Below, piece after piece: positions 20,100 through 49,415 of a stretch of 64,000 nt of DNA. Source of the stretch: Corallococcus sp. AB038B (GTDB taxonomy: Bacteria > Myxococcota > Myxococcia > Myxococcales > Myxococcaceae); the NCBI RefSeq assembly GCF_003668955.1, contig NZ_RAWO01000002.1:471605-535604 (forward strand), read 5' to 3'. A program made the translations under genes and the position numbers. Position 1 is the first letter of the stretch, and every line of letters begins with the position of its first letter. The notes under the pieces were generated by a model. It did not search any database. It had not been told where the DNA came from and saw only the letters and a program-made list of their open reading frames with translations.

Positions 20100-20849
20100 A
20101 TGGCACAGATCAAGCTTGGAGAACTGCTGATCAAGGCGAACGTCCTGCAGGAGAGCCAGCTCAAGGCGGCGCTCGCCGAGCAGGCCAAGTGGGGCGGGAA
20201 GCTGGGCGAGATCCTCGTCCGGATGAACCTCGTCTCCGAGGACATCCTCGTGCGCGCCTTGTCGAAGCAGCTGGGCATGCCGGCGGTGAACCTGGACTCC
20301 GTGCAGATGGTGCCGCCGCACGTGAAGGCCAAGATTCCGGCGCAGACGGCGCGCGACTTCTCTGTCGTCCCGCTGCAGCTGCGCGACGACGGCAAGACGC
20401 TGGTGGTCGCCATGTCGGACCCGCTCAACGTGCGGGTGCTGGACGAGCTGCGGGCCCTGTCCAAGTGCCGCATCGTGGCCAACGTGGCCGGGCGCACCTC
20501 CGTGGCGCGGGCGTTCGCGCGCCTCTACGAAGAGACGGCGGAGCTGGAGGACGCGGACACCAACTTCAAGGTGGTGGACGCGCAGGGCCGCACCGTCGTG
20601 AAGAACCTCAAGGACCTGGACCCGGCCGCCGCCGTCGCCATGTCCCCCAAGCCTGCCGCCGCGCCGCCCCCCCGTCAGGCGCCTCCGCCGGAGGCGCCTC
20701 GCGCGGCCTCCGGCAGCCCCGCGGAGCTGCTCAAGAGCGTGGAGGACGTTCAGCGCAAGGAGGTCGCGGCGCTGAAGGCCATGGTCGAGCTGCTCATCGA
20801 GAAGGGCATTTTCTCCCGCGAGGAATACCTCGCCAAGGTCAAGCGGTAG
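20100..20849 (+). CDS. MshEN / T2SS-E N-terminal domain-only protein (predicted c-di-GMP receptor), paralog 1
   Basis: N-terminus holds two tandem 24-residue motifs: KLGELLIKANVLQESQLKAALAEQ and KLGEILVRMNLVSEDILVRALSKQ. They match the MshEN c-di-GMP-binding consensus (RLGxxLLxxGLLxxxxLxxALxxQ). Followed by a GspE_N-like fold, a Pro-rich linker and a C-terminal helix. No ATPase domain. Confidence 0.8.
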   Translation: MAQIKLGELLIKANVLQESQLKAALAEQAKWGGKLGEILVRMNLVSEDILVRALSKQLGMPAVNLDSVQMVPPHVKAKIPAQTARDFSVVPLQLRDDGKTLVVAMSDPLNVRVLDELRALSKCRIVANVAGRTSVARAFARLYEETAELEDADTNFKVVDAQGRTVVKNLKDLDPAAAVAMSPKPAAAPPPRQAPPPEAPRAASGSPAELLKSVEDVQRKEVAALKAMVELLIEKGIFSREEYLAKVKR

Positions 20850-20858
20850 CCCCCGGCC

Positions 20859-21865
20859 ATGCGCAAGAAGATTGGTGAACTCCTCGTCCAGGCCGGAGTG
20901 GTGACGGACGAGCAGGTGAAGCAGGCCCTCGCGTCCGGACGGCGCGGCCAGGGCCGCAAGCTGGGTGAGGTGTTGGTGTCCATGGGCCTGTGCACGGGCC
21001 GGGACATCGCGCGGGCGCTGGCGACGCAGCACGAGCTGCCGTTCGTGGAGATCCCCGAGTACATCCCGCATGCGGTGTCCTCGCTGGTGTCCATGGACTT
21101 CCAGACCGAGCACCGGGTGCTCCTCTTCGCGGCGGAGCAGGACGGCCGCAGCGAGAAGATCCACGTCGCCGTGGAAGACCCGGGCAACCTGATGTTGGTG
21201 GACGAGCTGCGCTTCCAACTGCGCAAGCCGCTCAAGGTGTTCGTCGTAGCGCCGGACGACCTGGAGCAGGCGCTCGCGCGCGGCCGGGGTGAGCCCCTGG
21301 ACATCGTGGAGGCTGAACCGATGGACATGGACGAGGACGATTCGCCGGACATCCTGCCGCCGCCCCCTCCCGCGGCCGCGCGCCCGCCTCCGCCGCCGCG
21401 CCCACCCGCGCCGCCGACGCTGGACTGGGACCTGCCGCCGCCTCCGCCGCATGATGGCGACGCGTCCGCTGACGGCGCGGAGGTGCTGGAGGACATCCTG
21501 GGCTCCACGCCCCGTCCCAAGATCCCCAAGGCCCCGCGTCCGCCGCCGCCTCCCGCCGCCGCCCGTCCGCCGCCGCCCCCGCCTCCCGCGGAGCCGGAGG
21601 ATCCGAGCAAGCCGCGCGTGCCGGTGGTGCTCTTCGGCGGTGCCGCGCAGGGCGTGAAGCCGTCCGTGGCGCTCACGCCCAAGCCGGACTTCTCCGAGGA
21701 GGACCTGGCGGTGCTGGACGACATCGACCGCATCTCGCGCGGCGAAGAGGCCAGCCTGGACACGGAGAAGGTGAAGCCCGCGCGCATGGTCGCGAGCCTC
21801 ATCCGCCTGCTCATCCGCAAGGGGCTCATCCAGGAGGCGGAGTTCCTGGAGGAGCTGGCCCAGAA

Positions 21866-21869
<4 letters not shown>
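20859..21869 (+). CDS. MshEN / T2SS-E N-terminal domain-only protein, paralog 2, with duplicated poly-Pro linker
   Basis: Motifs [24 protein letters not shown] and [24 protein letters not shown]. Two near-identical [13 protein letters not shown](R)PP(A)P blocks. C-terminal helix [26 protein letters not shown] resembles the paralog-1 tail. Stop overlaps the oppD-like start (GTGA). Confidence 0.8.
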
Positions 21870-23949: not shown

Positions 23950-24325
23950 GTACAACCGCACGTACGTGCTCGCGGGCGTACGCGTGTGCGCGCGATGCCT
24001 GGGCACGTACCCGGTGCTCGCGGGCGTGTTCCTCGCGCTGTTCGCGCTGAAGGCGCCGCTCCAGTGGGAGTGGGACGTGCCGGTGGTGCTGGGGCTCACG
24101 CTTCCCGCGCTCGTGGACTGGGCGGTGGGACGCTTCCGGCCCGCCTCGGGTTCCAACGCGGTGCGCACGCTGACGGGCATCCTGTTGGGAGTGGGGCTCG
24201 GCCGCTCGCTGTACGTGCATGTGCAGCGCCCACTGCCGGCGGTATTACTTGCGCAGGCACTTCTGGTGACAGGGGTGGCGGTCCCTGTCATTCTCGCCAC
24301 TTACCGGCGGCCACGGCCGGAATAG
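23918..24325 (+). CDS. DUF2085-like small membrane protein with CxxC pair
   Basis: [44 protein letters not shown] plus 2-3 more TM helices. GTG start near 23912-23918 follows GGAGGAGG. The track ATG at 23825 would overlap oppF by 125 nt. Confidence 0.5.
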
Positions 24326-24356
24326 ACCTTTCGCGCACGGCTGTCCGTTACAGGCC

Positions 24357-25037
24357 GTGGGCGGTGAAGGGGATGGCACCCGTGGCTTCATGGGCACTGG
24401 GGGAAGTTTGGCACCCGAAACCTCAGACGAGCAGCTGATGCTCGCCTTCCAGGCGGGAAACGCGCGTGCGTTCGATGCGTTGGTGCGCAAGCACCGCGCG
24501 CCGGTGTTCAACTTCATCCTGCGCTTCGTAGGGCACAGGGCGCGGGCGGAGGACGTGCTGCAGGAGACCTGGCTCAAGGTGGTCCGCAGCGCCCGGGAAT
24601 ACGAGCCGAAGGCCCGGTTCACGACCTGGCTGTACACCATCGCGAGGAACCTCTGCGTGGACAGCACGCGCAAAGAGAGCTACCGCCAGACGACGTCCCT
24701 GGAAGCCCCCTCGGCAGGTGCCGACGGCGACGAGGGACGTCCGTTGGGCGAGGGGCTGCCGGATGCCGGGGCCAGCCCGGAGCGCGGCGCGCACAACGCC
24801 CGCCTCCGGCCCCTGCTGGAGCGGGCCCTGTCCGCCCTGCCGGAGGAGCAGCGCGAGGTGTTCGTGCTGCGCGAGTACAGCGGCATCCCGTTCAAGGAGA
24901 TCGCCGAGGTAACAGGCGTGTCCGAGAACACGGTGAAGAGCCGCATGCGCTACGCGCTGGAGGGCCTGCGCCGCCGCCTGGGTGAGCTGGGCGTGGACGG
25001 CGACCTGTCGGAGGATGGAAGGACGGTGGCGGGATGA
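24357..25037 (+). CDS. ECF-type RNA polymerase sigma factor (sigma-70 region 2 / region 4)
   Basis: Region 2 (DVLQETWLKVVRSAREYEPKARFTTWLYTIARNLCVD) and region 4 (EQREVFVLREYSGIPFKEIAEVTGVSENTVKSRMRYAL). The real start may be an internal Met. Confidence 0.85.
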   Translation: MGGEGDGTRGFMGTGGSLAPETSDEQLMLAFQAGNARAFDALVRKHRAPVFNFILRFVGHRARAEDVLQETWLKVVRSAREYEPKARFTTWLYTIARNLCVDSTRKESYRQTTSLEAPSAGADGDEGRPLGEGLPDAGASPERGAHNARLRPLLERALSALPEEQREVFVLREYSGIPFKEIAEVTGVSENTVKSRMRYALEGLRRRLGELGVDGDLSEDGRTVAG

Positions 25038-26470
25038 ATGCCCAGAATGCCCACGCGCACGAGGACCGGCTCCTCGACTTCGCCTATGGCGAACTGCCTG
25101 CGTCGGAGGCCCATGTGCTGGAGCAGCACGTCCAGGGCTGTGCGCGCTGCACGAAGGCGCTGGCGGACATCCGCGGCGTGCGCACCACCATGGCGCAGCT
25201 GTCGTCGGAGCCCGCGCCGGACGCGGGCCTGGAGTCGCTGCTCGCGTACGCGCAGCAGTCCGCGCGCCGAGCCGCCGCAGGCCCCGAGCCGAAGCCCTCG
25301 CGCTGGCGCCGCTTCCTGCTGCCCGCGGTGGGCCTGGCCACGGTGGGCACCTTCGGCCTCCTGACGTTGACGGTGAGCGAGAACCTGGACCTGGCGCCGA
25401 ACCTGTCGCAGCGGGTCGCACCCAGCCCGACGATGGCGGCGGCGAAGCAGGAGTCGCCGACGCGCGAGAGGAACGCCCCGAGCTCCCTGGCCCCCGCGCC
25501 GTCGACCGCGACCCTCGAAGTGGACGTGCCCGAGGGTGCCTCGGACGAACTGGCGGCCGCGCCCGCGCCGGACGTGACGAAGAACCAGGTGGAGGCCAAG
25601 GTGCAGCGCAAGGGCACCGCCGCGGCGCGTCCGTCCGACTGGATGAACGCGGGCAGTGGTGGCGCGATGCTGGAGCGCCGCGCGGAAGCCGAGGCTCCCA
25701 AGAAGAAGATGTCCAAGGCCGTCCGGGACGCGGACGACGACTTCGCCGCGCTCTCGCAGGCGACGGCCGGGGTGGCCGAGCAGGAGGCGCCTCCGAAGGA
25801 AGAGCAGGCCAACGACGGCTACCTCGCGAAGGATGAGCCCGCGGCACGGCGTTCCTCGGGAAAGCTCAGCGACAAGGCCATGGGCGCGAAGGGCGACTCG
25901 CTGCGGCTGGGCGAGGCGGCCTATGGCCGTGGGCTCATGACGGAGGATGACGACCAGGCCGTGGCCGCGGGCGCGGCTCCGCCGCCTCCTGCCGTGGCCT
26001 CCGCGCCCGTGGTCCAGGCCGTGCCCAAGGCCCCCTCCGCCGTGGGCTCCATCGGCGGTGCGACGCCTCCGTCCACGCCCAAGCCGGAGTCCCCCCAGGC
26101 CCAGGCCGCGAAGCCGGCTCCCATGGAGAAGTCCGCCTCCAAGGAGGCGATGACGGCGCGCGACCTGTCCGCCCAGGCCCAGGCCGCGGCGAACCAGGGT
26201 GACCGCGCCCGGGAGGCCCAGCTGCTGCGCGCCGCGCTCGCGGCTGGAGCCAGCGGCAGTGAGCGGCTGGCCCTGCTCTCACGGCTCTGCGAGTCCGAGT
26301 CCGTCCAGGGACGGACCCGGGAGGCTGCCGCCATCTGCGGGCAGATCATCAACGAGGCCCCCGGCTCCAGCGCGGCGCAGCTGGCCCAGCGCCGCATGCG
26401 TCAGGCCTCGCCCGCCACGGCTCCGGAGTCTGCTCCGGCCAGTGCCGCCCCTTCCCAGCCCGCGCAGTAG
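25034..26470 (+). CDS. Anti-sigma factor (zf-HC2 N-terminus, TM segment, long Ala/Pro-rich periplasmic region)
   Basis: ATGA overlap with the sigma gene. N-terminal HVLEQHVQGCARCTKAL is a zf-HC2 anti-sigma motif. TM RWRRFLLPAVGLATVGTFGLLTL. Low-complexity AAPAP-rich C-terminus with a TPR-like end. Confidence 0.75.
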   Translation: MNAQNAHAHEDRLLDFAYGELPASEAHVLEQHVQGCARCTKALADIRGVRTTMAQLSSEPAPDAGLESLLAYAQQSARRAAAGPEPKPSRWRRFLLPAVGLATVGTFGLLTLTVSENLDLAPNLSQRVAPSPTMAAAKQESPTRERNAPSSLAPAPSTATLEVDVPEGASDELAAAPAPDVTKNQVEAKVQRKGTAAARPSDWMNAGSGGAMLERRAEAEAPKKKMSKAVRDADDDFAALSQATAGVAEQEAPPKEEQANDGYLAKDEPAARRSSGKLSDKAMGAKGDSLRLGEAAYGRGLMTEDDDQAVAAGAAPPPPAVASAPVVQAVPKAPSAVGSIGGATPPSTPKPESPQAQAAKPAPMEKSASKEAMTARDLSAQAQAAANQGDRAREAQLLRAALAAGASGSERLALLSRLCESESVQGRTREAAAICGQIINEAPGSSAAQLAQRRMRQASPATAPESAPASAAPSQPAQ

Positions 26471-26488
26471 GGGAGGGCGGCAGTCCAC

Positions 26489-26791
26489 ATGACCGATGCG
26501 TCCGGGGCCTGGGTCCTGGATAATAGGAGCATGACGTCGGACGTGCACGCTCCCCCCGTGAACAGCCCCCGGAAGTCACCGCCGCGCTCCCCGCGCCGGG
26601 CCCGCCGTGGCCAGGCCATGGTGGAGTACTCGATGATCAACTGGGTGTTGATCGTCGGGCTCGTCGTCGGCGCCACGGTGAAGATCCGCTGGACGGACGA
26701 CCGGCAGACCAACGTCATCGACCTGTTCCTCGAGGCGTACCAGATCTATTACGACTCGTTTTACTTCGTGCTGAACCTGCCTTTCCCCTGA
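26489..26791 (+). CDS. Flp/TadE-type prepilin-like protein
   Basis: Class III leader-peptide cleavage motif RRG-QAMVEY, followed by the hydrophobic stretch SMINWVLIVGLVVGATV. Good SD (GGGAGGG) upstream of ATG 26489; an alternative start is Met15 (26531). The predicted mature part of ~58 aa is Flp-pilin sized. Confidence 0.6.
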   Translation: MTDASGAWVLDNRSMTSDVHAPPVNSPRKSPPRSPRRARRGQAMVEYSMINWVLIVGLVVGATVKIRWTDDRQTNVIDLFLEAYQIYYDSFYFVLNLPFP

Positions 26792-26903
26792 GGGACGGAA
26801 GGCCGCGGATCAACTCACTGCGTCGAGCCGTCCTCCCCCCTGGGCGGACAGGCTCCGCGAGCTCCGGCAGTCCCGGGATTCCGCTTTGTCACGAGAGGTG
26901 GTT

Positions 26904-26939
26904 TTGACACCTGCTCTGGGGCATGGCTAACATCTTGCC
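26904..26939 (+). promoter_or_regulatory. Candidate promoter upstream of cpaB: sigma54-like TGGCTAACATCTTGCC (26924-26939), overlapped by a sigma70-like TTGACA (26904-26909)
   Basis: GG and GC are spaced exactly as in the TGGCAC-N5-TTGC consensus. The element lies ~85 bp upstream of the cpaB ATG in a 230-bp intergenic region. Pattern match only. Confidence 0.35.
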
Positions 26940-27023
26940 TCGTTCGCGCCCTGGCATCGCCCCCTCGTCCAAAGCAGTCCTGCCGCCACGACGGCGCCCC
27001 ACCGTTCTGGAGGACTTTGAACC

Positions 27024-27842
27024 ATGTTGAAGGGTAAGACCCCACTCGTCGTCGCACTGGTGCTCGGTTTGCTCGCGGGCATCGTGGCCTACTCGGCCAT
27101 CAAGAAGAAGGAATCCGATGTGCGCCGCGGGTGGAACCTGGTTCCCGTGGTGGTGGCGGGCCAGGACATGCCCGAGGGCTCGGTCATCACGTACGAGATG
27201 ATCTCCCAGCGCTCGGTGCCGGAGCAGTTCGTCACCTCGTCGGTGGTGAAGCCGGACTCCGCCAACTACATCGTGAACCAGAAGGTGCTGGTGGCGCTGC
27301 AGGCCGGCGACCCCATCCTCTGGAGCCAGTTCGAGACGACGAAGGCCGCCGAGCGCCTGTCCACGAAGGTGCAGAAGAAGGCGCGCGCCATCACCATCGA
27401 GGCGAAGCAGACCACGTCCGTGGGCGGGTGGATTCGCCCGAACGACCACGTGGACATCATCGGCACGTTCCGCGATCCGCAGACGGACGAGAGCGTCGCG
27501 GTGACGCTGCTGCAGAACATCATCGTGGTCGCCACGGGTAAGATCACCGGCACCACGAACATCAACCTCATCCCGGAGAACCAGCGCGAGTACTCCAACG
27601 TCTCGCTGATGGTGCTGCCGGAAGAGGCGGAGATCCTGGTGCTGGCGGCGGAACTGGGCCAGCTGACGTTGTCCCTGCGCAACGAGGACGACGTGGACCT
27701 CATCGAGGAGCGTGGCCGCGCGACCATCAGCACGCTGCTCTCCGGTGAACGCACCCGTGTGCTGGAGCAGAAGCGCCGGGAGATCATCCAGATCATCAAG
27801 GGCAGTGGCGGCGGCGAGAAGGCCTCGGCCGGCTCTCCGTAG
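27024..27842 (+). CDS. cpaB: Flp pilus assembly protein CpaB/RcpC
   Basis: N-terminal TM MLKGKTPLVVALVLGLLAGIVAY, then SAF-like and RcpC regions; 272 aa, a typical CpaB size. Confidence 0.85.
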   Translation: MLKGKTPLVVALVLGLLAGIVAYSAIKKKESDVRRGWNLVPVVVAGQDMPEGSVITYEMISQRSVPEQFVTSSVVKPDSANYIVNQKVLVALQAGDPILWSQFETTKAAERLSTKVQKKARAITIEAKQTTSVGGWIRPNDHVDIIGTFRDPQTDESVAVTLLQNIIVVATGKITGTTNINLIPENQREYSNVSLMVLPEEAEILVLAAELGQLTLSLRNEDDVDLIEERGRATISTLLSGERTRVLEQKRREIIQIIKGSGGGEKASAGSP

Positions 27843-27920
27843 TCCTGCGCGCGGGGCCGCTTCGCTCACGGCTGAAGCGGCCCTGCCGACCCCTCCCTCA
27901 TCCCCCGGGGATTCGCGCCC

Positions 27921-28766
27921 ATGCTCGCAGGTATCGTCCTCCTTCTCGTCACCGGCTCGGTGTTCTTTTTCAGCCTGGTGATCTTCAGCGTCCTGTCGAA
28001 GGCGTATGAGCAGTACCAGGAGCGGTACGTCGCCAAGTCGATGAACGACTTGAGCGACATGTTCCTCTTCATCGACGCGCGGCAGATGTTGATCCTCAAC
28101 ATCGCCTGCATGTGCCTCCTGGGCATCCTCAGCTACATCGTCTTCAACCCCATCCTCGCGGTGCTCGCGACCATCTTCGGCTTCTTCCTGCCGATGCTGC
28201 TCGTGAAGCACTACCGCAAGCGCCGCATCAAGAAGTTCAACGTGCAGTTGGTGGACGCGCTGCAGGCCATGGCCAACGCGTTCAAGGCGGGCCTCACGTT
28301 CCCCCAGGCCATTGAGCACGTGGCGCGCGAAGCGATGCCGCCCCTGTCCCAGGAGTTCGGCCTCTTCGTGAAGGAAGTGAAGCTGGGCGTGCCGCTGGAA
28401 GAAGCGCTCGTCAACATGGGCAAGCGCGTGGGCAGCGACGACCTGGAGCTGGTGGTGGTGTCCACCAACATCGCGCGCCAGCTGGGCGGCAACATGGCGG
28501 AGATGTTCGAGACCATCTCCACGGTGATCCGCGAGCGCTTCCGTCTGGAAGGCAAGATCGACGCGCTGACCTCCCAGGGCAAGCTTCAAGGGTGGATCGT
28601 CGCGGCCATGCCGGCGGTGCTGGGCATGGTTCTCAACTACATGCGTCCGGACCTGATGGAGCCGATGATGAACCACATCTTCGGCTACATCCTGGTGACC
28701 ATCATCGCCATCATGGAGATCATGGGCATCCTCATCATCCGGCGCATCGTCAACATCGACATCTGA
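27921..28766 (+). CDS. tadB: Tad/Flp pilus platform protein TadB (T2SS-F family)
   Basis: 281 aa polytopic membrane protein with a T2SSF-type cytoplasmic domain (QAMANAFKAGLTFPQAIEHVARE). Confidence 0.85.
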   Translation: MLAGIVLLLVTGSVFFFSLVIFSVLSKAYEQYQERYVAKSMNDLSDMFLFIDARQMLILNIACMCLLGILSYIVFNPILAVLATIFGFFLPMLLVKHYRKRRIKKFNVQLVDALQAMANAFKAGLTFPQAIEHVAREAMPPLSQEFGLFVKEVKLGVPLEEALVNMGKRVGSDDLELVVVSTNIARQLGGNMAEMFETISTVIRERFRLEGKIDALTSQGKLQGWIVAAMPAVLGMVLNYMRPDLMEPMMNHIFGYILVTIIAIMEIMGILIIRRIVNIDI

Positions 28767-28779
28767 AACGAGGCGCACC

Positions 28780-29670
28780 GTGCAGGAAGTCCTGACATTT
28801 CTGCTGATGGGCGGCTCGGCACTGCTGACCGCGGGCGCGGTGGCGTTCCTGGGCATCGGCCTGTACTCCAACCTCCTGGAGCGCTTCCTCACGGAAGTCC
28901 GCGACGAGTCCGCGGGCGGCATGAAGGGCGCTGGCTCCGTCGCCGTCCGCAAGCTGGGCTCGATGAACCGGCGCTTCATGTGGCCGGGCTACGAGTCCAA
29001 GACGCGCCGCAAGCTGATCAAGGCGGGCGAGCCGTCGCAGTACAAGCCCGAGGACATCATGGCGCTTCAGGAGATCAGCGCCTTCTTCGCGCTCCTGGCC
29101 GGCCTGTTCGTCGTCAACGGCATGGGCATGAACCTGGCCTGGTCGCTGCTGGTGATGCTGCTGGGCCTGTTCTATCCGCTCATCTGGTTGAACGATCAGG
29201 TGAAGCGCCGTCACCTGGCCATCAGCCGCGCGCTTCCGTACAACCTGGACCTGCTGACGCTGTCGGTGGAAGCGGGCATGGACTTCACGGGCGCGCTGGC
29301 GAAGGTGGTGGAGAAGGGCCGCCAGGGTCCGCTGCGTGAAGAGCTGCAGCTGGTGCTCAAGCAGCTCAAGATGGGCAAGACGCGTGAAGAGGGGCTCAAG
29401 AGCATGATCGTGCGCGTGGACCTGCCGTCGCTGACGACGTTTGTCACGGCGCTGATCCAGGCGGACAAGATGGGTACGAGCCTGGGCAAGGTGCTGCGCA
29501 TCCAGTCCACGCAGATGCGCATCGACCGCACGCAGCGCGCCGAGAAGCTGGCGGGCGAGGCGCCGGTGAAGATGCTCTTCCCGCTCATCGCCTGCATCTT
29601 CCCGACGGTGTTCATGGTGCTCTTCGGGCCCATCGTGTTCCAGTTCATGTTCGGCAACGTCGGGGGCTAG
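28780..29670 (+). CDS. tadC: Tad/Flp pilus platform protein TadC (T2SS-F family)
   Basis: 296 aa with a T2SSF domain (LDLLTLSVEAGMDFTGALAKVVE). Directly follows tadB. Confidence 0.85.
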   Translation: MQEVLTFLLMGGSALLTAGAVAFLGIGLYSNLLERFLTEVRDESAGGMKGAGSVAVRKLGSMNRRFMWPGYESKTRRKLIKAGEPSQYKPEDIMALQEISAFFALLAGLFVVNGMGMNLAWSLLVMLLGLFYPLIWLNDQVKRRHLAISRALPYNLDLLTLSVEAGMDFTGALAKVVEKGRQGPLREELQLVLKQLKMGKTREEGLKSMIVRVDLPSLTTFVTALIQADKMGTSLGKVLRIQSTQMRIDRTQRAEKLAGEAPVKMLFPLIACIFPTVFMVLFGPIVFQFMFGNVGG

Positions 29671-29743
29671 TCCTCTGCCCATCCTGCTCACCATCACCCA
29701 GGGGCTCCAGGTCGGACGGGAGCTCGCCTTCGAGCAGGCCGAA

Positions 29744-32700
29744 GTGAAGATCGGCCGGACCTCGGAGAACGACCTGGTGCTGCATGACCACGGTGTCTCC
29801 CGGCGTCATGCCCGCATCACGGCGAGGGATGGGCGCTACTTCGCCGCGGACGTTGGCAGCGCGAACGGCACGCAGCTGAACGGCCAGCCGCTGGCCGGCG
29901 AGAAGCAGCTGCGCGACGGCGACCGCATCACCGTGGGGCCCGTGGAGTTCACCTTCGTGTGGATGCCGCCGGAGGATGACGACGACGTCACCCGGCCCAT
30001 CCGGCGGGTGCTCGCGCCGCCCCACGCGAACGTGTCGCCGCAGGGCTTGGGGCAGGCCTCGCTCGCGGAGATCGAAGCGGCGCCCACGAGCTACCAGCAG
30101 TCGATGCCGGCCATGGCCCGGCCTGCATCCCCGCCGCGCCCGGGAATGGCGGTGCCCGCTGCGAAGGGTGGGGCGACCCCGGCGATGCCGGTGCCGGCCG
30201 CCACACCGAAGCGGCCCTCCGCTCCGGATCTGCCGGCGGTCACTGCCCCCGCGCCGGGTGCGGCCGCGCAGGTCCGGCCTCCACCGGGGCCTGCGCTCAG
30301 CGCTTCCGCGCCGGGTGCGGCGGCTCCGCCCAAGCCTTCCGCCGGGCCTCCTGTGCTGGGAGCTTCCTCGCCGGCATCCGCTGCGCCGGCTCGGCCTGCA
30401 CCTGGAGCGCCCGTGCAGGGAGCTGCCGTGACGGGTGCGGCGACTCCGCCCAGGCCTCCTCCGGGTCCGCCTGCGCTGGGTGCCTCCGCGTCGGCTGCTT
30501 CGGGCAAGGTTCCCGCCGCGCCTCCTGTGTTGGGGCCTTCGGCGCCGGGCGCGACCGCGCCTGCCAGGACTCCCGCCGGGCCCCCGGTGTTGGGTCCTGC
30601 TGCTTCGGGCGCGGGTGCGCCGGCCAAGGCTCCTGCTGGCCCCCCGGTGCTGAGCGCTCCGGCCGTGAACAAGGCTCCGGGACCTTCCGCCTCCGTCCGG
30701 GCCTCCGGGCCGGGACTGTCAGCGGTCGGTGCCTCGGGACCGGGCAGGTCGTCCGCGCTGGAGGCTGCCCCGGCCCCCTCGCACCCCACCGCGCTCGAAC
30801 ATCCCGCGGCTGGAGTTCCTGCCTCGACTGCGACCTCCTCGCAGGGGAAGGCCGCCGCTTCAGCTCCTGCCGAGCCCGCGGCTCCCGCCAAGCGGAACGG
30901 CGTCGCGAACCTGCCTGGTGTCGGCGCGCCCGCGCTGAACCGTCCCTCGCTGGGGCTTGGCGCCGCGCGCGCGTCCGCTGCTCCAGTGTCCCGGGGCGCC
31001 GCGGCTTCCGCGCCTGGACTGCCGTTGATGTCGCCGCCGGGGCTCATGGCTCCGCCGCCTCCGGCTCGGCCTTCCGTCGTACCGCCTCCCGTGGATCTGG
31101 CCCCCGTGGTGCCGGATGAACCCGAGGAGCGCACGCTGATGGCGATCCCCACGGCGGACGCACCCGCCGCGGCGCTGTCTCCCGTACTGCCGCTCCCGGA
31201 GCTGGACGAGCCCGAGGAGCGCACGCTGATGGCGATCTCCACGGTGGACTCGCTCGTGCCCGCCGTGGTGCCGCCCCCCGTGCTGTCGCTCCCGGAGCTG
31301 GACGAGCCCGAGGAGCGCACGCTGATGGCGATTCCGGCGACCCCGGAAGCGCCTCCCCTGGAAGAGTCGGCGCCGCCACCGGCGGCCTTGCCCGCGCTGC
31401 CTCCGCCGATGATGGAGGAGCCCGAGGAGCGGACCGTTCTCGACCTCCGGCCCATCACTCCGGTCAGTCCGCTCGTGGCCCCTCCGGTGCGCGTCGCGAG
31501 CGCTCCCGTCCCCGCGCCCGACTCCAGCGAGCCCTCGACCTTCGTCGGCCAGGACGATGACCTCTACGCGGCCCCCGAGGAGACCCGGGCTTCGGGGACC
31601 TTCACGGGCCAGGTTGCCCCCGCCCCCGTGGCGCCTCCGCCGGCCTCGAGCCCTCCCGTCCCGCCGCCATCGCCGGAGCCGGTGACGTTCGTCGGCCGGG
31701 ACCGGGCCGCGCCTGCCCCGACCCTGGACCCCGGCCCGCTGCCGGGCGAGTTCCCACTGGCCCCCGTGCCCTCCGCGGACGTGGAGGGGGATGCCACCCA
31801 GCCCGTGCCGGCCGACCTGGAAGACTCCTTCGTCCAGCCCGTGCCCAACGGCCCGGTGACGGTCGTCGCGAAGGTCGAGCCCTCGTCCGCCGCCGACAAG
31901 GCTCGTCAACGGCGTCAGCTGGGCAAGTCACTCCAGGGCCGGTTCATCCTCTTCTGGAAGCGCCAGTCGCTGCCCAAGCGGATCGCCTTCGCGTCGCTGG
32001 CGGGCGTGGCCGTGCTGTGCGTGGTGACGCTGCTCGTGGCGCTCGCGGTCCCCACGGCCATCCGGCTCCCGGGCAGCGAACCCTTCAAGCTGGGCATGGA
32101 GCCGGTGACGGACTCCTTCGGCCTGGGCGACGGCGTGCGCTGGGTCCACGCCGACGACAAGCTCTTCGACTTCCGCTTCGTGTCCCCCACGCGCGCCGTG
32201 GCGGTGCTGCACTACCAGGCCAGCAGCATCGCCCGGGACGAGGTCAACCTGTCCCTCAACGGCGTGTCCCTGGGCTGGGTGCCCCCGGACACTGCGCAGA
32301 CGGCCGAGCGTGAGCTGGAGCAGATCCTCCCGCCCAGCCTCCTGCGGCGCAACGCCAACAACCAGATCCTCTTCGACAACGCCCTCAACCCGCCCGGCCG
32401 CGACCCGTGGCGCATCTGGAACCTGCGGCTGGAGATCATCCCGGTGCCGGAGGCGCCGCCGGATCAGCTGGTCGCCTCCGCCCGGGAGGCCGCGACGGCG
32501 GGGGCCCGCTTCTACGAGCTCAAGGATGTGGGCGCGGAGAACCTGTTCAAGGCGTGGCGGGAATACCGCGCCGCTTGGATCACCCTGGAAGCGCTGGACG
32601 ACAAGCCGGAGCTTTACGAGGACGTCCGGGAGCGGATTGCCCAGATTTCAATGGAGCTGGACCACCGCTGCAGCCAGCTGATGATGCAGTTCCAGCGGGC

Positions 32701-32824
32701 GGTTCAGTTCCGCAGCCGACGGGATGCGGTCGCGACCCTGGAAGACGTACGGAGACGCTTCCCTACGGCTGAGCATCGCTGCCACAATCTCGCGCAGGAA
32801 AAAGCCTATGAGCACGAGCTTTAG
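29744..32824 (+). CDS. FHA-domain membrane protein (about 1030-1050 aa): N-terminal FHA, long Pro/Ala-rich repeats, TM helix, C-terminal extracytoplasmic domain. True N-terminus probably lies upstream of 29744.
   Basis: FHA motifs IGRTSENDLVLHDHGVSRRHARI and SANGTQLNGQPL. The first FHA beta-strands (PILLTITQGLQVGRELAFEQAE) are encoded in frame upstream of the first canonical start (29672-29743). TM IAFASLAGVAVLCVVTLLVALAV near residue 750. Confidence 0.8.
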   Translation: MKIGRTSENDLVLHDHGVSRRHARITARDGRYFAADVGSANGTQLNGQPLAGEKQLRDGDRITVGPVEFTFVWMPPEDDDDVTRPIRRVLAPPHANVSPQGLGQASLAEIEAAPTSYQQSMPAMARPASPPRPGMAVPAAKGGATPAMPVPAATPKRPSAPDLPAVTAPAPGAAAQVRPPPGPALSASAPGAAAPPKPSAGPPVLGASSPASAAPARPAPGAPVQGAAVTGAATPPRPPPGPPALGASASAASGKVPAAPPVLGPSAPGATAPARTPAGPPVLGPAASGAGAPAKAPAGPPVLSAPAVNKAPGPSASVRASGPGLSAVGASGPGRSSALEAAPAPSHPTALEHPAAGVPASTATSSQGKAAASAPAEPAAPAKRNGVANLPGVGAPALNRPSLGLGAARASAAPVSRGAAASAPGLPLMSPPGLMAPPPPARPSVVPPPVDLAPVVPDEPEERTLMAIPTADAPAAALSPVLPLPELDEPEERTLMAISTVDSLVPAVVPPPVLSLPELDEPEERTLMAIPATPEAPPLEESAPPPAALPALPPPMMEEPEERTVLDLRPITPVSPLVAPPVRVASAPVPAPDSSEPSTFVGQDDDLYAAPEETRASGTFTGQVAPAPVAPPPASSPPVPPPSPEPVTFVGRDRAAPAPTLDPGPLPGEFPLAPVPSADVEGDATQPVPADLEDSFVQPVPNGPVTVVAKVEPSSAADKARQRRQLGKSLQGRFILFWKRQSLPKRIAFASLAGVAVLCVVTLLVALAVPTAIRLPGSEPFKLGMEPVTDSFGLGDGVRWVHADDKLFDFRFVSPTRAVAVLHYQASSIARDEVNLSLNGVSLGWVPPDTAQTAERELEQILPPSLLRRNANNQILFDNALNPPGRDPWRIWNLRLEIIPVPEAPPDQLVASAREAATAGARFYELKDVGAENLFKAWREYRAAWITLEALDDKPELYEDVRERIAQISMELDHRCSQLMMQFQRAVQFRSRRDAVATLEDVRRRFPTAEHRCHNLAQEKAYEHEL
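31115..31450 (+). repeat. Four interspersed copies of a ~33-nt unit encoding (L)DEPEERTLMAI within the FHA gene
   Basis: gagcccgaggagcgcacgctgatggcgat recurs at ~31115, 31202, 31298 and (degenerate) 31411, separated by Pro-rich linkers of variable length. Confidence 0.7.
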
Positions 32825-32851
32825 GGCCCGTGCCCCCCTCAGCAGGACGCG

Positions 32852-34600
32852 GTGACCGCCATGTCGAACGCACCTCCCCCCGCCCGCCGACGGCCTACGT
32901 CCGGTACGCCCTCCTCCGGGAGCGGATCGCGCGCGCCGGTCCGCCGGTCGACCGCCGGTGCCGCCGCGGCCCGCCCCGCGAAGCTCGTCGTCGTCGCCGG
33001 CCCCATGGAGGGTGAGGAGTTCGCGCTCTCCGAGCTCGAGTACACGGTCGGCCGCTCCGCCGACAACCCCATCTGCATCCAGGACACGTCCGTCTCCCGC
33101 AAGCACGTGACGCTGCGCAAGGAGTCCTCGGGCTGGATGGTCAGTGACATGGGCTCCGGCAACGGAACCATCCTCAACGGCGAGCCCATCGCCGAGGAGA
33201 CGCTCCTCGCCAACGGCGACGTCATCACGCTGGGCGACTCGGAGCTGCGTTACGAGGACACCGCCAACAGCACCGCGAAGGTGCAGGCCCCCACCGGCTC
33301 CCGGCCCCGTCCGTCCACGGCGGCGGGCCGAGCTCCCACGGCCGTGCCCACGCGTCCCGCCCGGGAGGGCCGTGCGCGCCCGCAGACGTCGCGCGCCGCC
33401 GCCGCCGCGGAGCTCACGCCGGAAGCGCAGCGCAAGCGCATGCGGATGAAGCTCGCGGGCGTCGCCGTGCTGGTGGTGCTCTTCGCGGGCCTGGGCGTCG
33501 CGCGCTCGCGCATGCGGCAGCAGGCGGAGGAGCAGGGCCGCATCGAGGCGGAGCAGCGTGAGTACCGCGCGCAACTGGGCGGCCTCTTCCAGGAGGCCAA
33601 GAACCTGGTGCGCGAGGGCCAGTGGGAGCAGGCCAAGGCGAAGCTGGAGGAGCTCCACACGCGGGCGTCGGACTACCCCGGCGTGGAGGACTACCTGAAG
33701 GCCGCGGACCGGGAGATTCCCAACCAGAAACACCTGAGCGCGGCCCAGGCGGCGTTGACCAAGGGCGAGCTGGCCAGCGCGAAGGCGTCCATCGATAAGG
33801 TGACCAGCGACACCCAGCAGTACGAGCAGCTGAAGACGGCGCGCAAGAACCTGCTGGACGCCGCCGACACGCGCACGAAGGAGGCCAAGGGGCTCCTGGA
33901 CACCCGCCAGCTGGATAACGTGCAGAAGGCCAAGGCCATCACCGACGACGTGCTCGCGACCTTCCCCGAGCACCGCGACGGCAAGCTGGTCAACGACGAC
34001 GCCGCGCGTGTCATCGCGGACCTGACGCGTCCGGACCCCGTGCGCGTGGCCGCGGCGCCCAAGCCGTGGGAGCCCGCGGTGGAGCGCTTCCGCGACGGTG
34101 ACATCACCGGCGCGGTGGCCATCCTCAACGCGTGCGCCGGCAAGACGTCCCAGTGCAAGCAGGTGATGGGACAGGTGACGGAGTTCGGCAACCTCTACAA
34201 GAAGCTGGAGGATCTGGACGCGAAGGGCCTGACCCGGCTGCTCGCGCTGGACAAGGACATCACCGACGGGCGCGGCAGCAAGATGGGGCGCAACGCGGGC
34301 ACCCGCGCGGGAACCATCTATTACAAGAGCGCCGCGGGCGCGAAGGCCGCCGGCCAGTGGTCGCGCGCCATGGAGTTCGCCCGCCGCGCGCTCCAGGCGG
34401 ACCCCAACCACACGGGCGCCGCCAATATCGTCAACGACCTCAAGGGCAAGGCGAAGGACCTGTACATGCAGGCCTACTCCATCAAGGACTCCAGCCCGGA
34501 GGACGCGCTGCCCAAGTTCCGCGACGTCGTCGCGATGACGCCGCCTGACGACGAGCTGCACGGCAAGGCCCAGGGCTGGGTCGAGAAGCTGTCGCGATGA
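32852..34600 (+). CDS. FHA-domain membrane protein with TM helix and TPR-like periplasmic domain (582 aa)
   Basis: FHA motifs VGRSADNPICIQDTSVSRKHVTLR and SGNGTILNGEPI. TM LAGVAVLVVLFAGLGVA. The C-terminal helical repeats are TPR-like. Confidence 0.8.
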   Translation: MTAMSNAPPPARRRPTSGTPSSGSGSRAPVRRSTAGAAAARPAKLVVVAGPMEGEEFALSELEYTVGRSADNPICIQDTSVSRKHVTLRKESSGWMVSDMGSGNGTILNGEPIAEETLLANGDVITLGDSELRYEDTANSTAKVQAPTGSRPRPSTAAGRAPTAVPTRPAREGRARPQTSRAAAAAELTPEAQRKRMRMKLAGVAVLVVLFAGLGVARSRMRQQAEEQGRIEAEQREYRAQLGGLFQEAKNLVREGQWEQAKAKLEELHTRASDYPGVEDYLKAADREIPNQKHLSAAQAALTKGELASAKASIDKVTSDTQQYEQLKTARKNLLDAADTRTKEAKGLLDTRQLDNVQKAKAITDDVLATFPEHRDGKLVNDDAARVIADLTRPDPVRVAAAPKPWEPAVERFRDGDITGAVAILNACAGKTSQCKQVMGQVTEFGNLYKKLEDLDAKGLTRLLALDKDITDGRGSKMGRNAGTRAGTIYYKSAAGAKAAGQWSRAMEFARRALQADPNHTGAANIVNDLKGKAKDLYMQAYSIKDSSPEDALPKFRDVVAMTPPDDELHGKAQGWVEKLSR

Positions 34601-36327
34601 AGAAGCGCAAGGGGCTGGAGCCGCCTCCGGCCGATGAGCCGGGGCAGGGCGACCTGTTCGGCACGTCGCTGCTACCCCCCTTGCGTCCCGCACCGGCGAA
34701 GGCCGCCAGCGGAGGCAAGACGCCTCCTGCCCCCCCGGCTCCCCTGGCTCCTTCGACCGCGCCGGTGGCTGAAATCGCTCCGCCGCCTCCGGCCGCCGTC
34801 ACCCCGCCGCCGCGCCCGGAGCGCACGGTGTTGTCGGTGGGCGAGCTCACCCGGCAGATCAAGCAGACGGTGGAGACGCGCTTCCCGCGCGTGATGGTTC
34901 GCGGTGAGGTGTCCAGCTTCCGGGGCGCCAACGCGCGCGGCCACTGGTACTTCACGCTCAAGGACGCGGACGCCTCCATCGACGCGAAGGTGTGGGCGTC
35001 CATGGCGGGGCGGATCCGCTTCGCGCTGCGCGACGGCATGGAGGTGGTGGCCGAGGGCAGCGTGGACCTGTACGAGCCGCAGGGCCGCTACAGCCTCATC
35101 GTGTCCCGGCTGGAGCCGGTGGGCGAGGGCGCGCTGGCGCTCGCGTTCGAGCAGCTCAAGCAGCGGCTGGCGGCGGAGGGGCTCATCGGCGACCGGCGCG
35201 TGCGGCCGCCCCGGCCCGTGCCGTTCCTGCCCCGGCGCATCGGCGTCGTCACCAGCCGCACCGGCGCGGCACTCCAGGACTTCCTGCGCGTGCTGCACTC
35301 GCGCAACCCCCGGCTGGGCGTGCTGCTGGCGGACGCGCGCGTGCAGGGTGAGGGCGCCGCGGAGGACGTGGCGCGGGCCATCGAGCGGCTTTCGCGCACC
35401 GACGTGGACGTCATCGTCGTGACGCGCGGCGGAGGCTCCGTGGAGGACCTCTGGACGTTCAACGAGGAGCGGGTGGCGCGCGCCATCTTCGCCTCGCCGG
35501 TGCCGGTGGTGTCCGCCATCGGCCACGAAATCGACTTCACCATTTCGGACTTCGTCGCGGACCTGCGCGCGCCCACGCCCAGCGCGGCGGCGGAGCGGCT
35601 GGCGCCGGTGCTGGCCGACCTGGAGCTGACGCTGGCCACGCAGTCCGGCCGCTTGCGCCGGGCCATGGAGCGCCGGGTGCTGGAGCTGCGTCAGAGCCAG
35701 GGCCAGCTTCGCGCGCGGCTGCCGGACCCTCGCCGCGAGGTGAACCACCAGCGCCTGCACCTGTCCGAACAGGTGGAGGCGATGATGCGCGTCCTGCGCC
35801 CGCGCGCGCGCGAGCACCGGGAGACGCTGCGAGCCCTGCAGGAGCGGCTGCAGCGGGCGCGGCCCCAGACGCGGCTGTCGGAACAGCGGGCCCACCTGCT
35901 CAAGCTGGCCATGCGCCTGTCGGAGGCAGCACGCGCGGGCGTCACCCGTCGGCGGGGCGCGCTGGCGGACGCGCGGCTGGGGCTGGAGCGGCAATCCCCT
36001 ACGGCGCGGGTGGCGGCCGAGCGGGCGAAGGTGGCCCAGACGCGCTCGCGGCTCCTGGAGCTGCAGCGGGGCATGCTGGCGACCGCGCAGACGCACTTCG
36101 GACGGTTGGGGGGCCGCCTGGACGCCCTGAGCCCCCTGAAGGTGATGTCTCGCGGCTATGCGGTGACGTTCCGCCAGCGGGACGGCGTCGTGGTGCGCTC
36201 CACGGCGGACGTGGTGGTGGGGGACGTGCTGGGCATCAAGCTGGCGGCCCACGGGGCGAAAACCCTGGGCGGGTGTGAAGAAATCGAAGCCACCGTTACC
36301 AGCCTGAAAGGCCCGGTGGACTGCTAG
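34597..36327 (+). CDS. xseA: Exodeoxyribonuclease VII large subunit
   Basis: OB-fold N-terminus (LSVGELTRQIKQTVETRFPRVMVRGEVSSF) and ExoVII catalytic region (RIGVVTSRTGAALQDFLRVL ... TRGGGSVEDLWTFNEE). ATGA overlap with the upstream gene. Confidence 0.9.
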   Translation: MKKRKGLEPPPADEPGQGDLFGTSLLPPLRPAPAKAASGGKTPPAPPAPLAPSTAPVAEIAPPPPAAVTPPPRPERTVLSVGELTRQIKQTVETRFPRVMVRGEVSSFRGANARGHWYFTLKDADASIDAKVWASMAGRIRFALRDGMEVVAEGSVDLYEPQGRYSLIVSRLEPVGEGALALAFEQLKQRLAAEGLIGDRRVRPPRPVPFLPRRIGVVTSRTGAALQDFLRVLHSRNPRLGVLLADARVQGEGAAEDVARAIERLSRTDVDVIVVTRGGGSVEDLWTFNEERVARAIFASPVPVVSAIGHEIDFTISDFVADLRAPTPSAAAERLAPVLADLELTLATQSGRLRRAMERRVLELRQSQGQLRARLPDPRREVNHQRLHLSEQVEAMMRVLRPRAREHRETLRALQERLQRARPQTRLSEQRAHLLKLAMRLSEAARAGVTRRRGALADARLGLERQSPTARVAAERAKVAQTRSRLLELQRGMLATAQTHFGRLGGRLDALSPLKVMSRGYAVTFRQRDGVVVRSTADVVVGDVLGIKLAAHGAKTLGGCEEIEATVTSLKGPVDC

Positions 36328-36368
36328 CGGGCCACCCTCTACATTCCGCGCCCCGCTCGGGGAGGTGG

Positions 36369-36707
36369 ATGGCCGTGGCGAAGTCGGACAAGAACCCCAA
36401 GGTGGAGCCCGCTCCGGAGCAGTACGGAGACGTGGTGTCGCGCTTGGAAGACACAGTGGCGCGGCTGGAAAGCGGCGACCTGTCGTTGGAAGAGTCGCTC
36501 AAGGCGTTCGAGGAGGGCATCCGCCTCGTCCGCCGGGGTGAGAAGCTGCTCACGGAGGCCGAGCAGCGAATCGAACAGCTGCTGGTGGACGAGGACGGCC
36601 AGGACGTGGCGGCGCCGCTGGCGGTGGCGGCCCGGCCCGCTCCGCAGGCTGCCCCCCGGACGAGCGCGCAGGCGCGTCCGCCACCGGAGGACGATGTCCC
36701 GTTCTAG
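36369..36707 (+). CDS. xseB: Exodeoxyribonuclease VII small subunit
   Basis: 112 aa. LEDTVARLESGDLSLEESLKAFEEGIRLVRRGEKLL is the XseB signature. GGAGGTG SD upstream. Confidence 0.85.
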   Translation: MAVAKSDKNPKVEPAPEQYGDVVSRLEDTVARLESGDLSLEESLKAFEEGIRLVRRGEKLLTEAEQRIEQLLVDEDGQDVAAPLAVAARPAPQAAPRTSAQARPPPEDDVPF

Positions 36708-36734
36708 GTATCAGGGGAAGGGTGGAGGCCGGGC

Positions 36735-37124
36735 ATGTCGAAGCCGAAGATTACAATTGTCGATGACGACCGCGACACGCGCGAGCTGCTCGCCGAGGCC
36801 CTGGGGGCCGAGGGGTTCGAGGTCATGTCCGCGGCCAATGGCCTGCGGCTCGTCGCGTCGCTGGAGCTGCACCGGCCGCACGCCATCCTCCTGGACGTGA
36901 ACATGTCCTGGATCAACGGCTTCGAGCTGTGTCAGGCCGTGAAGCAGAACAAGCAGTTCCGGGACATCCCCATCATCTTCATCAGCGGGCGGGGAGACCC
37001 GGAGGACAAGCGGCGAGGCATGGAGGTCGGCGCGGCCGACTACTTCGTGAAGCCGCTGGAGCTGGACGCGCTCGTCAAGCGCATCCGCGAACTCATCCCC
37101 GCCGACGTGGCGAAGGAGCCCTGA
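36735..37124 (+). CDS. Single-domain CheY-like response regulator
   Basis: 129 aa receiver: [19 protein letters not shown] ... [15 protein letters not shown] ... [12 protein letters not shown]. Confidence 0.85.
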
Positions 37125-37129
37125 CGACG

Positions 37130-38023
37130 ATGGCCGCTTTCAACCTGGACCCCTTCATGCGCACCCAGCAGTCGCGGGTGGAGGCGCTCCTGCTCGAACG
37201 CGCGGACCGCCTGGGTCCCGCGGGCACGCCGCCCCGGCTGGCGGAGTCCATGCGCTACTCGCTGCTCGCGGGGGGCAAGCGCCTGCGCCCGGTGCTGTGC
37301 CTGGCCTTCGCGGACGCGGTGTCCAAGTCGAGCACCGACGCCGCCGTCGTGGCGGACGCGGCCTGCGCGCTGGAGTACGTACACACCTATTCGCTGGTGC
37401 ACGACGACCTGCCCTCCCTGGACAACGACGACCTGCGCCGGGGCCTGCCCACGAACCACAAGGTCTACGGCGAGCCGGTGGCGCTGCTGGCCGGGGACGG
37501 GCTGTTGACGGAGGCCTTCAACGTGCTCGCCTCCGGACCGGAGCCGGTGCGCGGCCTCCTGTGCGCGGAGCTGGCGCGCGCGGCGGGCGCGAGCGGGATG
37601 GTGGGCGGGCAGGCGCTGGACATCGCGGCGGACCGGGCCGCGGCTTTGGATTACCTCCTGCGGTTGCACCGGATGAAGACGGGCGCGCTCATCCTCGCGG
37701 CGTGCCGGATGGGCGTCCTGGCGGCCGGTGGCGACGCGGCGGCGCTCGCCAGCGCGGTGACGTACGGTGAGGCGGTGGGCCTGGCCTTCCAGATTGCCGA
37801 CGACGTGCTGGACGTGACCTCCAGCGCGGAGGCCATGGGCAAGCCGGTGGGCGCGGACGCGGAGGCCGGGCGCTTCACCTTCCCGGCGGTGGTGGGGCTG
37901 GACGAGTCCCGCCGCATGGCAGACGAGCTGGTGGCCCGCGCGGAGGCGGCGGTGCGTCCGCTGGAGGGCGTGGACGGTCCGCTGGCGGCGCTGGCGCGCT
38001 ACTCGGTGGAGCGGAAGTCCTGA
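37130..38023 (+). CDS. ispA: Farnesyl/geranyl diphosphate synthase
   Basis: First DDxxD motif [17 protein letters not shown] and second motif FQIADDVLD. The real start is the ATG at 37130 within the longer track ORF. Confidence 0.9.
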
Positions 38024-45120: not shown

Positions 45121-45125
45121 CCCGC

Positions 45126-48256: not shown

Positions 48257-48319
48257 CATCCACCGGGGACCGACCCACGGCCCCCCAGGCGCACAGCTTC
48301 GAGAAGGCGGACAACACTC

Positions 48320-48643: not shown

Positions 48644-48646
48644 TCC

Positions 48647-49354: not shown

Positions 49355-49415
49355 AGCCCGCCCGCCGCGCCGTCGTTTCCGGCGGCGCGGGGGTGGAACA
49401 ACCGGGGGTGCCACC

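Follow-up and report, generated by a model that had tools for sequence, protein, structure and literature searches.

The window analyzed here, a 64-kb stretch (64,000 nucleotides) of contig NZ_RAWO01000002.1 from Corallococcus sp. AB038B, carries at positions 26489-34600 a set of six genes that is very probably the Corallococcus ortholog of Myxococcus xanthus kil gene cluster II, one half of the Kil Tad-like (type IVc) pilus machine. In M. xanthus, this machine assembles at prey contacts and is needed for contact-dependent killing (Seef et al. 2021, eLife, PMC8460266; Herrou et al. 2025, Nat Commun, PMC12075869). Judged from sequence, the orthology to kil cluster II is secure because of the protein identities, the gene order, the count of downstream genes and the published cluster representatives of KilB and KilH. 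An earlier note on this DNA had proposed one half of a split Kil system or, should the species be another, an ortholog of it; identities, synteny and the published representatives support the former, and the latter is also correct, the window being Corallococcus DNA. The Kil system itself is already known (described in 2021 and 2025), and the KilB, KilG and KilH orthologs of Corallococcus have already been tabulated (PMC12075869). The six genes, the last two of which are referred to below as FHA1 and FHA2, are as follows:

26489..26791, + strand: kilK ortholog, Flp-like prepilin and tip-adapter minor pilin (100-aa open reading frame; assigned by motif, synteny and identity of the mature part)
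27024..27842, + strand: kilB, CpaB/RcpC family (Pfam RcpC, 7e-23, and SAF; N-terminal transmembrane anchor)
27921..28766, + strand: kilG, TadB/CpaG-type T2SSF inner-membrane platform protein, MXAN_4651 ortholog (Pfam T2SSF, 4e-17; adjoins kilB)
28780..29670, + strand: kilH, TadC/CpaH-type T2SSF inner-membrane platform protein, MXAN_4650 ortholog (Pfam T2SSF, 2e-18)
29675..32824, + strand: MXAN_4649 ortholog, bitopic FHA protein, FHA1 (Pfam FHA, 1e-18; first canonical start GTG 29744)
32852..34600, + strand: MXAN_4648 ortholog, bitopic FHA protein, FHA2 (Pfam FHA, 2.5e-18, with weak TPR matches; 582-aa open reading frame)

All six open reading frames lie on the + strand, and their G+C content at third codon positions (GC3) of 0.85-0.94 reflects the codon bias of real genes in a genome of ~70% GC. 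Coordinates, strand, GC3 and Pfam matches thus bear out the co-oriented genes and domains described in the earlier note; the six-gene extent given there also stands, but the published cluster II takes in an upstream zinc-finger anti-sigma gene as well (25034-26470). Of 10 window proteins, 7 have letter-identical entries in public databases, assigned to Corallococcus sp. AB038B and C. exiguus. For comparison, 80 related loci were gathered by searching genome contigs with CpaB, and strain AM003 (locus L031) served as the M. xanthus reference, the DK1622 protein being used for KilB only. KilB is 90.4% identical to DK1622 ABF88090.1 over 271 aa, and both fall in one 90%-identity cluster. KilG and KilH are 95.4% and 82.1% identical to their AM003 orthologs, mature KilK is 76% identical to its counterpart, and FHA2 is 61.5% identical overall; for FHA1, tblastn and pairwise alignment gave 79% identity in the FHA domain and 58% in the C-terminal domain. 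The comparison suggested earlier, of CpaB, TadB, TadC and both FHA proteins with M. xanthus, therefore yields identities of 58-95%, the FHA1 C-terminal domain included, together with shared synteny.

The published cluster II (MXAN_4648-4661) comprises MXAN_4648 (FHA and TPR), 4649 (FHA, PrgH-like), 4650 (KilH), 4651 (KilG), 4652 (KilB), 4653 and 4654 (both of unknown function), 4655 (KilK), 4656 and 4657 (likewise), 4658 (KilL), 4659 (TadG-like), 4660 (KilM) and 4661 (zinc-finger) (PMC8460266, supplementary file 18). The order KilK, KilB, KilG, KilH, FHA, FHA-TPR is the same in the window, where reading along the + strand corresponds to falling MXAN numbers. Accessions WP_120622538 and WP_014397657, listed as KilH and KilB of C. 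coralloides (PMC12075869, Supplementary Data 1), are the representatives of the 90% clusters that hold the window TadC and CpaB, respectively. Downstream of the block lie xseA, xseB, a receiver-only response regulator, ispA, dxs, tlyA, an unknown gene, a hybrid kinase, a TPR protein and a hydrolase, followed by bacN. These ten genes and bacN fit one for one to MXAN_4647 down to MXAN_4637, and the numbering matches from bacN (MXAN_4637) to kilB (MXAN_4652). BacN, BacO, BacP and a ParB_N protein (PadC) are encoded at 47915-50741, so that the position near bacNOP-padC, given in the earlier note for the second M. xanthus cluster, is confirmed with a matching gene count. The window and M. xanthus cluster II hence have in common six genes with their order and orientation, an extracytoplasmic function (ECF) sigma/anti-sigma pair upstream, the xseA-xseB-...-bacNOP-padC series downstream, the kilB promoter and folded proteins that are 61-95% identical.

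KilB passes the NCBIfam CpaB equivalog model TIGR03177 (190 bits against a cutoff of 71), and deletion of kilB, kilG or kilH in M. xanthus abolishes contact-dependent killing, with KilG-NG foci seen at prey contacts (PMC8460266). The remainder of the machine must be encoded elsewhere. Pfam searches of every GC3-supported open reading frame in the whole 64-kb window found no TadA/CpaF ATPase, CpaC secretin, CpaE or prepilin peptidase, in agreement with the earlier note, and a Walker-A pattern scan of the window and the 80 loci returned only ABC transporters. In four other Corallococcus genomes, KilA, KilC, KilF and KilD lie 80-90 gene indices from KilB/G/H, compared with ~1500 genes in M. xanthus (PMC12075869, Supplementary Data 1); because of these distances between clusters I and II, the Kil split is much less extreme in Corallococcus. 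From the index direction in those genomes, cluster I should lie past the low-coordinate end of the window. A 235-aa fragment of M. xanthus KilF, taken from the eLife supermatrix alignment, retrieved from the protein collection only proteins of <=412 aa, none of them from Corallococcus.

According to the M. xanthus work, the machine polymerises KilP into a filament; KilL/M/N tip complexes, joined via the adapters KilK or KilO, prime this filament, and the machine works with a needleless type III secretion system (T3SS) (PMC12075869). The window encodes the inner-membrane and periplasmic core (the KilG and KilH platform, and KilB), the adapter pilin KilK and the two FHA proteins; KilF (an FHA-fused ATPase), KilC (secretin), KilA (peptidase), KilD, KilP (major pilin) and the KilLMN tips must be supplied by other loci. 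On prey contact, KilB, KilG and KilH would join KilC and KilF, as expected by homology to M. xanthus; KilK would couple a tip complex to the KilP filament, and the filament would be extruded towards the prey. Through the FHA pair, envelope events may be linked to a phospho-dependent recruitment of KilF and KilD, both of them cytoplasmic FHA proteins.

Compared with canonical Tad/Flp systems (Caulobacter crescentus cpa, Aggregatibacter tad), the locus shares a CpaB/RcpC protein that passes TIGR03177, two TadB/TadC-type T2SSF proteins, and a short prepilin with a G/XXXXEY cleavage motif and a hydrophobic helix. It differs in having no CpaF/TadA, CpaC/RcpA, CpaE/TadZ or CpaA/TadV, and in a pilin that matches no Flp profile; moreover, M. 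xanthus Kil assembles dynamically at prey contact sites, not at the pole. FHA proteins are foreign to canonical Tad pili, as had been pointed out: the window holds two bitopic FHA proteins, whereas canonical tad loci hold none, and FHA proteins are a hallmark of Kil.

The KilK ortholog consists of a leader of up to 41 aa, the cleavage site G|QAMVEY (in the context RRG|QAMVEY) and a 59-aa mature part with a hydrophobic helix. Orthologs are present in 63 of the 80 related loci, and their mature part conserves the sequence RGQAMVEYS...NVIDLF.EAYQ.YYDS.YFVLNLPFP. In M. xanthus, KilK (MXAN_4655) is a tip-adapter minor pilin, and the major pilin KilP is encoded elsewhere (PMC12075869). Because that machine uses a KilP filament with KilK/KilO adapters, the Flp-like gene of the window is assigned as the adapter minor pilin rather than the major one; the RRG-QAMVEY motif and hydrophobic helix on which a Flp-type prepilin had been called are present, but the product is not the major pilin. 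The gene begins 18 nt after the anti-sigma stop codon and ends 232 nt before kilB. Three further features lie upstream of kilB:

24357..25037, + strand: ECF sigma factor (Pfam Sigma70_r2, r4_2 and ECF; NCBIfam sigma70-ECF; context, not a named kil gene)
25034..26470, + strand: zf-HC2 anti-sigma factor, positional equivalent of MXAN_4661 (Pfam zf-HC2, 3.5e-05; transmembrane segment at residues 94-112; tblastn synteny)
26904..26933, + strand: sigma-70-type promoter-like site TTGACA-N18-TAACAT, ~90 nt 5' of kilB (motif scan and alignment)

The ECF sigma gene overlaps the start of the anti-sigma gene by 4 nt, and in all related loci that extend far enough upstream (those of Corallococcus, Myxococcus, Archangium, Hyalangium and others) the pair stands directly 5' of the kil block. 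MXAN_4661, annotated as "Putative zinc-finger", is the upstream boundary of the published cluster II (PMC8460266, supplementary file 18). In Corallococcus, the pair may possibly be co-transcribed with kilK. The TTGACA-N18-TAACAT site is the sole promoter-like match in 24000-37000. In an alignment (A3) that spans six genera (Corallococcus, Myxococcus, Citreicoccus, Archangium, Hyalangium and GXIMD 01537) with 11 sequences, both hexamers are invariant and their flanks have diverged. Between this site and the kilB ATG, a GC-rich inverted repeat, CCGCC-N4-GGCG (~26982-26996), and a GGAGG Shine-Dalgarno sequence are both conserved. Intergenic gaps from kilB through the second FHA gene measure 13-78 nt; given these short gaps and the invariant promoter-like site, kilB-kilG-kilH-FHA-FHA probably forms one operon, possibly running into xseA. 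As a separate observation, the stem reads CGCCC...GGGCG in Archangium, which could be a compensatory change in the kilB 5' hairpin.

The arrangement upstream of kilB differs from that of M. xanthus. Myxococcus, Pyxidicoccus, Citreicoccus and Hyalangium have eight genes in the interval from the anti-sigma gene to kilB, whereas kilK alone occupies this interval in the window, where the anti-sigma gene directly abuts it. The compact anti-sigma-kilK-kilB order was found in 12 of 12 Corallococcus-type loci (L001-L011 and L055), one complete genome included, and also in Myxococcaceae bacterium GXIMD 01537 and several deep-branching metagenome-assembled genomes (MAGs). With Myxococcus sp. Y35 orthologs as tblastn queries (E<=1e-3), the Tip4 components KilL4/KilN4/KilM4 (MXAN_4658-4660) had no match in the 64-kb window, nor do they occur at this position in any Corallococcus locus, and MXAN_4653, 4654, 4656 and 4657 had no genuine match in the window; a short "4654" match falls on kilK DNA, where the query reading frame overlaps kilK. 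In M. xanthus, Tip4 has the highest efficiency among the tips and is the sole one capable of killing independently of the needleless T3SS, designated T3SS* (PMC12075869). The same study modelled five COCOR tip-like triplets at other loci and describes the organisation as similar across Myxococcales.

Outside Corallococcus, the genera Archangium, Cystobacter and Vitiosangium (L018-L025, L034, L050-L053 and L057) carry the block KilM4-KilN4-KilL4-4657-4656-KilK-4654 in inverted orientation with respect to kilB, and in Myxococcus, Pyxidicoccus and Hyalangium the block is co-oriented with kilB; only kilK is left of it in Corallococcus. Because it is inverted, co-oriented or absent depending on the genus, this segment of cluster II can be regarded as a rearrangement hotspot. 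One record labelled Corallococcus terminator BB12-2 (JBLZWL010000017.1, L041) has an expanded, Myxococcus-type cluster II with nearly the same coordinates and identities as Myxococcus eversor (L042); it is unlike C. terminator CA054A (L009) and may be mislabelled.

FHA1 is predicted to consist, from the N to the C terminus, of a cytoplasmic FHA domain, a ~650-aa proline/alanine-rich disordered linker, one transmembrane segment, a periplasmic beta-sandwich and a TPR-like helical domain. In the numbering of the 1026-aa form, the transmembrane segment is predicted at residues 751-769, with basic residues before it, and residues 76-735 contain 23% Pro and 21% Ala. Two tandem repeats lie within the linker, which is encoded at 30050-31950:

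30511-30649, + strand: 60-bp tandem repeat (Tandem Repeats Finder)
31114..31332, + strand: 96-bp tandem repeat, 2.4 copies, encoding (D/E)EPEERT(L/V) (Tandem Repeats Finder)

The EERT[LV] motif occurs in four copies in the window protein, in 1-4 copies in Corallococcus orthologs and in none from other genera, while an acidic DDxTRPI motif just past the FHA domain is found in most genera, in 1-3 copies. Both DDxTRPI and EPEERT(L/V) are possible phosphothreonine docking sites. MXAN_4649 orthologs measure 917-1101 aa in Corallococcus, compared with 460-520 aa in most other genera; against the 484-aa M. xanthus protein, the window version is probably 1049 aa, its linker ~500 residues longer and carrying the Corallococcus-specific EPEERT repeats. 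The linker repeats are also the probable cause of the breakage of this gene into partial proteins of 367-389 aa in many draft assemblies.

The length of FHA1 depends on its start codon. The FHA1 frame is open and conserved for 23 codons 5' of GTG 29744, encoding PILLTITQGLQVGRELAFEQAE, which matches the M. xanthus N-terminus. CTG 29675, four bases past the kilH stop codon, is the counterpart of the M. xanthus GTG start, and this non-canonical codon is probably the true start, giving 1049 aa. The extended protein aligns to the GarA FHA domain from its residue 4. RefSeq holds versions of 1026 aa and 1043 aa (AB038B), and a 1064-aa version in AB030 that starts at the equivalent codon. Accordingly, the FHA domain, transmembrane segment and Pro/Ala repeats of the protein described in the earlier note as a 1026-aa Pro-rich repeat FHA protein are confirmed, but its length is probably 1049 aa. 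In all Corallococcus loci, Citreicoccus, Pyxidicoccus fallax and M. eversor, the first canonical FHA1 start occurs only at the VKIGR position, and standard gene callers would therefore lose the first two strands of the FHA domain.

FHA2 is predicted to comprise a cytoplasmic FHA domain, a disordered linker, one transmembrane segment (residues 199-217 of the 582-aa open reading frame, preceded by basic residues) and a ~360-aa periplasmic all-helical, TPR-like solenoid with an invariant Cys pair. Its Met4 is nearly invariant in 70 orthologs, and RefSeq holds a 579-aa version; the start is thus probably ATG 32861, giving 579 aa. The ATGA overlap of this FHA-TM-TPR gene with xseA, reported in the earlier note, is seen at 34597-34600. 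Both FHA proteins keep the canonical GR / SxxH / NG phosphothreonine-binding residues, which are invariant in the 70 FHA2 orthologs, and both C-terminal parts contain conserved Cys pairs, consistent with a periplasmic location. Searched by sequence against the PDB, the two proteins gave matches to their FHA domains only. From this predicted topology, the two proteins are inferred to be N-in/C-out trans-membrane scaffolds or sensors. MXAN_4648 and MXAN_4649 are counted within cluster II and, with KilF and KilD, make up an excess of FHA proteins that is regarded as a Kil signature; Seef et al. suggested that the FHA proteins of both clusters provide a signalling step (PMC8460266).

This architecture resembles that of SctD of the T3SS (YscD/PrgH), which likewise has an N-terminal cytoplasmic FHA fold, a single transmembrane segment and a periplasmic domain; Pfam Yop-YscD_cpl scores above its cutoff in both FHA proteins (54 and 71 bits versus 33.2). 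Unlike SctD, the window proteins lack periplasmic ring-building domains after the FHA-like domain and transmembrane segment. A second parallel, drawn by Seef et al., is the threonine-phosphorylation pathway of the type VI secretion system (T6SS), with Fha1/TagH and PpkA/PppA of Pseudomonas aeruginosa, where FHA proteins are also tied to a contact-triggered dynamic envelope machine. In this case, the TagH model stays below its cutoff (63 versus 120 bits), and the locus has no Hanks kinase or PP2C phosphatase.

It is very improbable that the locus has no connection with predation and represents a canonical Tad/Flp adhesion-pilus operon that is decayed or incomplete, having lost its ATPase, secretin and peptidase, and is either non-functional or merely adhesive. 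Such a reading could draw on the absence of CpaF, CpaC, CpaE and CpaA from the locus and on the passing of a generic CpaB equivalog model by CpaB, but all genes are intact and show strong coding bias, and their KilB/G/H products are 82-95% identical to M. xanthus proteins experimentally required for killing. In addition, the split arrangement and the flanking genes are conserved across many Myxococcaceae, the missing parts are encoded in cluster I of related genomes, and the invariant promoter argues for selection on expression. More credence, although it is still unlikely, is due to a kil cluster II ortholog whose machine has functionally diverged, depending wholly on tips encoded elsewhere and, for toxicity, on the needleless T3SS*, and with the MXAN_4649-type linker, twice as long as in M. 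xanthus, altering regulation. Of the eight intervening Myxococcus genes, only kilK is matched in the window, the compact arrangement occurs in all 12 Corallococcus-type loci, Tip4 is the sole T3SS*-independent killing tip in M. xanthus, and the Corallococcus MXAN_4649 orthologs are of the long form. On the other side, Tip4 orthologs may sit elsewhere, five COCOR triplets having been modelled at other loci, the organisation is described as similar across Myxococcales (PMC12075869), and linker length alone is uninformative on function. The preferred identification as the kil cluster II ortholog has several points weighing against it. Because Tip4 and four other cluster II genes are absent from the locus, the machine may work differently in Corallococcus. 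At E<=10, no Pfam or NCBIfam family, the Flp profile included, matches KilK, either as the full reading frame or as the mature peptide. The completeness of the machine in AB038B would rest on other Corallococcus genomes for cluster I, KilP and the tip clusters, and a Kil function in Corallococcus would be a transfer from M. xanthus.

The place of the two FHA proteins is weighed separately. They might act outside the Kil machine, serving another envelope process and merely sharing an operon with kilBGH and xseAB, which we consider improbable. Both proteins are unnamed and no deletion mutant of MXAN_4648 or MXAN_4649 is reported in the literature searched, the FHA2 gene overlaps xseA, and sub-threshold NCBIfam FHA matches to GltG (gliding motility), TagH (T6SS) and SctD (T3SS) indicate that FHA-transmembrane proteins serve several myxobacterial machines. 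Nevertheless, both genes directly follow kilH in all related loci examined, which range from Corallococcus to Archangium and also include deep-branching MAGs; homologs of the FHA1 C-terminal domain carry, where the source is named, almost exclusively myxobacterial names; and cluster II membership, with the FHA excess as a Kil signature (PMC8460266), places them within the system. At its boldest, a role within Kil would make the FHA pair a trans-envelope sensor or scaffold that nucleates Kil at prey contacts: an event in the envelope or on the secretin side would be sensed by the periplasmic beta-sandwich and TPR-like domains, and the Thr residues of the linker motifs DDxTRPI and EPEERT, once phosphorylated, would dock the FHA domains of KilF, KilD and each other, while the Tip4-less locus would mark T3SS*-dependent killing throughout the genus. 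This combined proposal is doubtful. Fold searches with the FHA proteins gave only generic TPR and beta-sandwich matches, the missing mutants and the lack of a kinase or phosphatase gene within the locus also count against the proposed role, and the translational coupling of FHA2 to the housekeeping gene xseA speaks against assuming that the whole operon serves Kil.

For predatory myxobacteria, Kil is the central device of contact-dependent killing, and its confirmation here adds nothing new in kind. The locus nonetheless offers a naturally minimal cluster II (anti-sigma-kilK-kilB-kilG-kilH-FHA-FHA) that shows which genes are always linked and which are locally dispensable, as well as a kilB promoter, invariant across genera, that is usable for expression studies. 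It also provides domain models and topology for two FHA membrane proteins, the most obvious candidates for the prey-contact signalling step, and corrected, probable start codons for both FHA genes. If the boldest reading of the FHA pair were true, the loss of Tip4 would mark Corallococcus as a genus in which Kil kills only together with the needleless T3SS*.

Two candidate interpretations of the sequence were rejected. Large antisense open reading frames (e.g. 26889-28979, minus strand) are high-GC artefacts according to GC3 and the G+C content at second codon positions (GC2). Horizontal acquisition of the locus was dismissed, as membrane-protein and Pro/Ala-rich coding accounts for the dip in GC at 26-30 kb and its peak at 30-32 kb, and the synteny is family-wide.

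Several neighboring genes may be mentioned. About 5 kb upstream of the kil block, at 20100-20849 and 20859-21869, two adjacent genes encode proteins made up solely of MshEN, which in type II secretion system and type IV pilus ATPases forms the N-terminal domain; the ATPase domain itself is absent from both. This pair adjoins a DUF4292 protein and an ExbB/ExbD pair, and its position is conserved in Corallococcus and GXIMD 01537. Downstream, a 129-aa stand-alone receiver protein is encoded at 36735-37124, between xseB and ispA; because the 3' end of its gene overlaps the longest ispA open reading frame call (36929-38023), the ispA start probably lies further downstream. A 685-aa multi-TPR protein at 44955-47012 occupies the position of MXAN_4639, which is listed among the Kil-associated candidates (TPR, Caulobacter proteome-BLAST hit) in the supplementary gene table of Seef et al. 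(PMC8460266).

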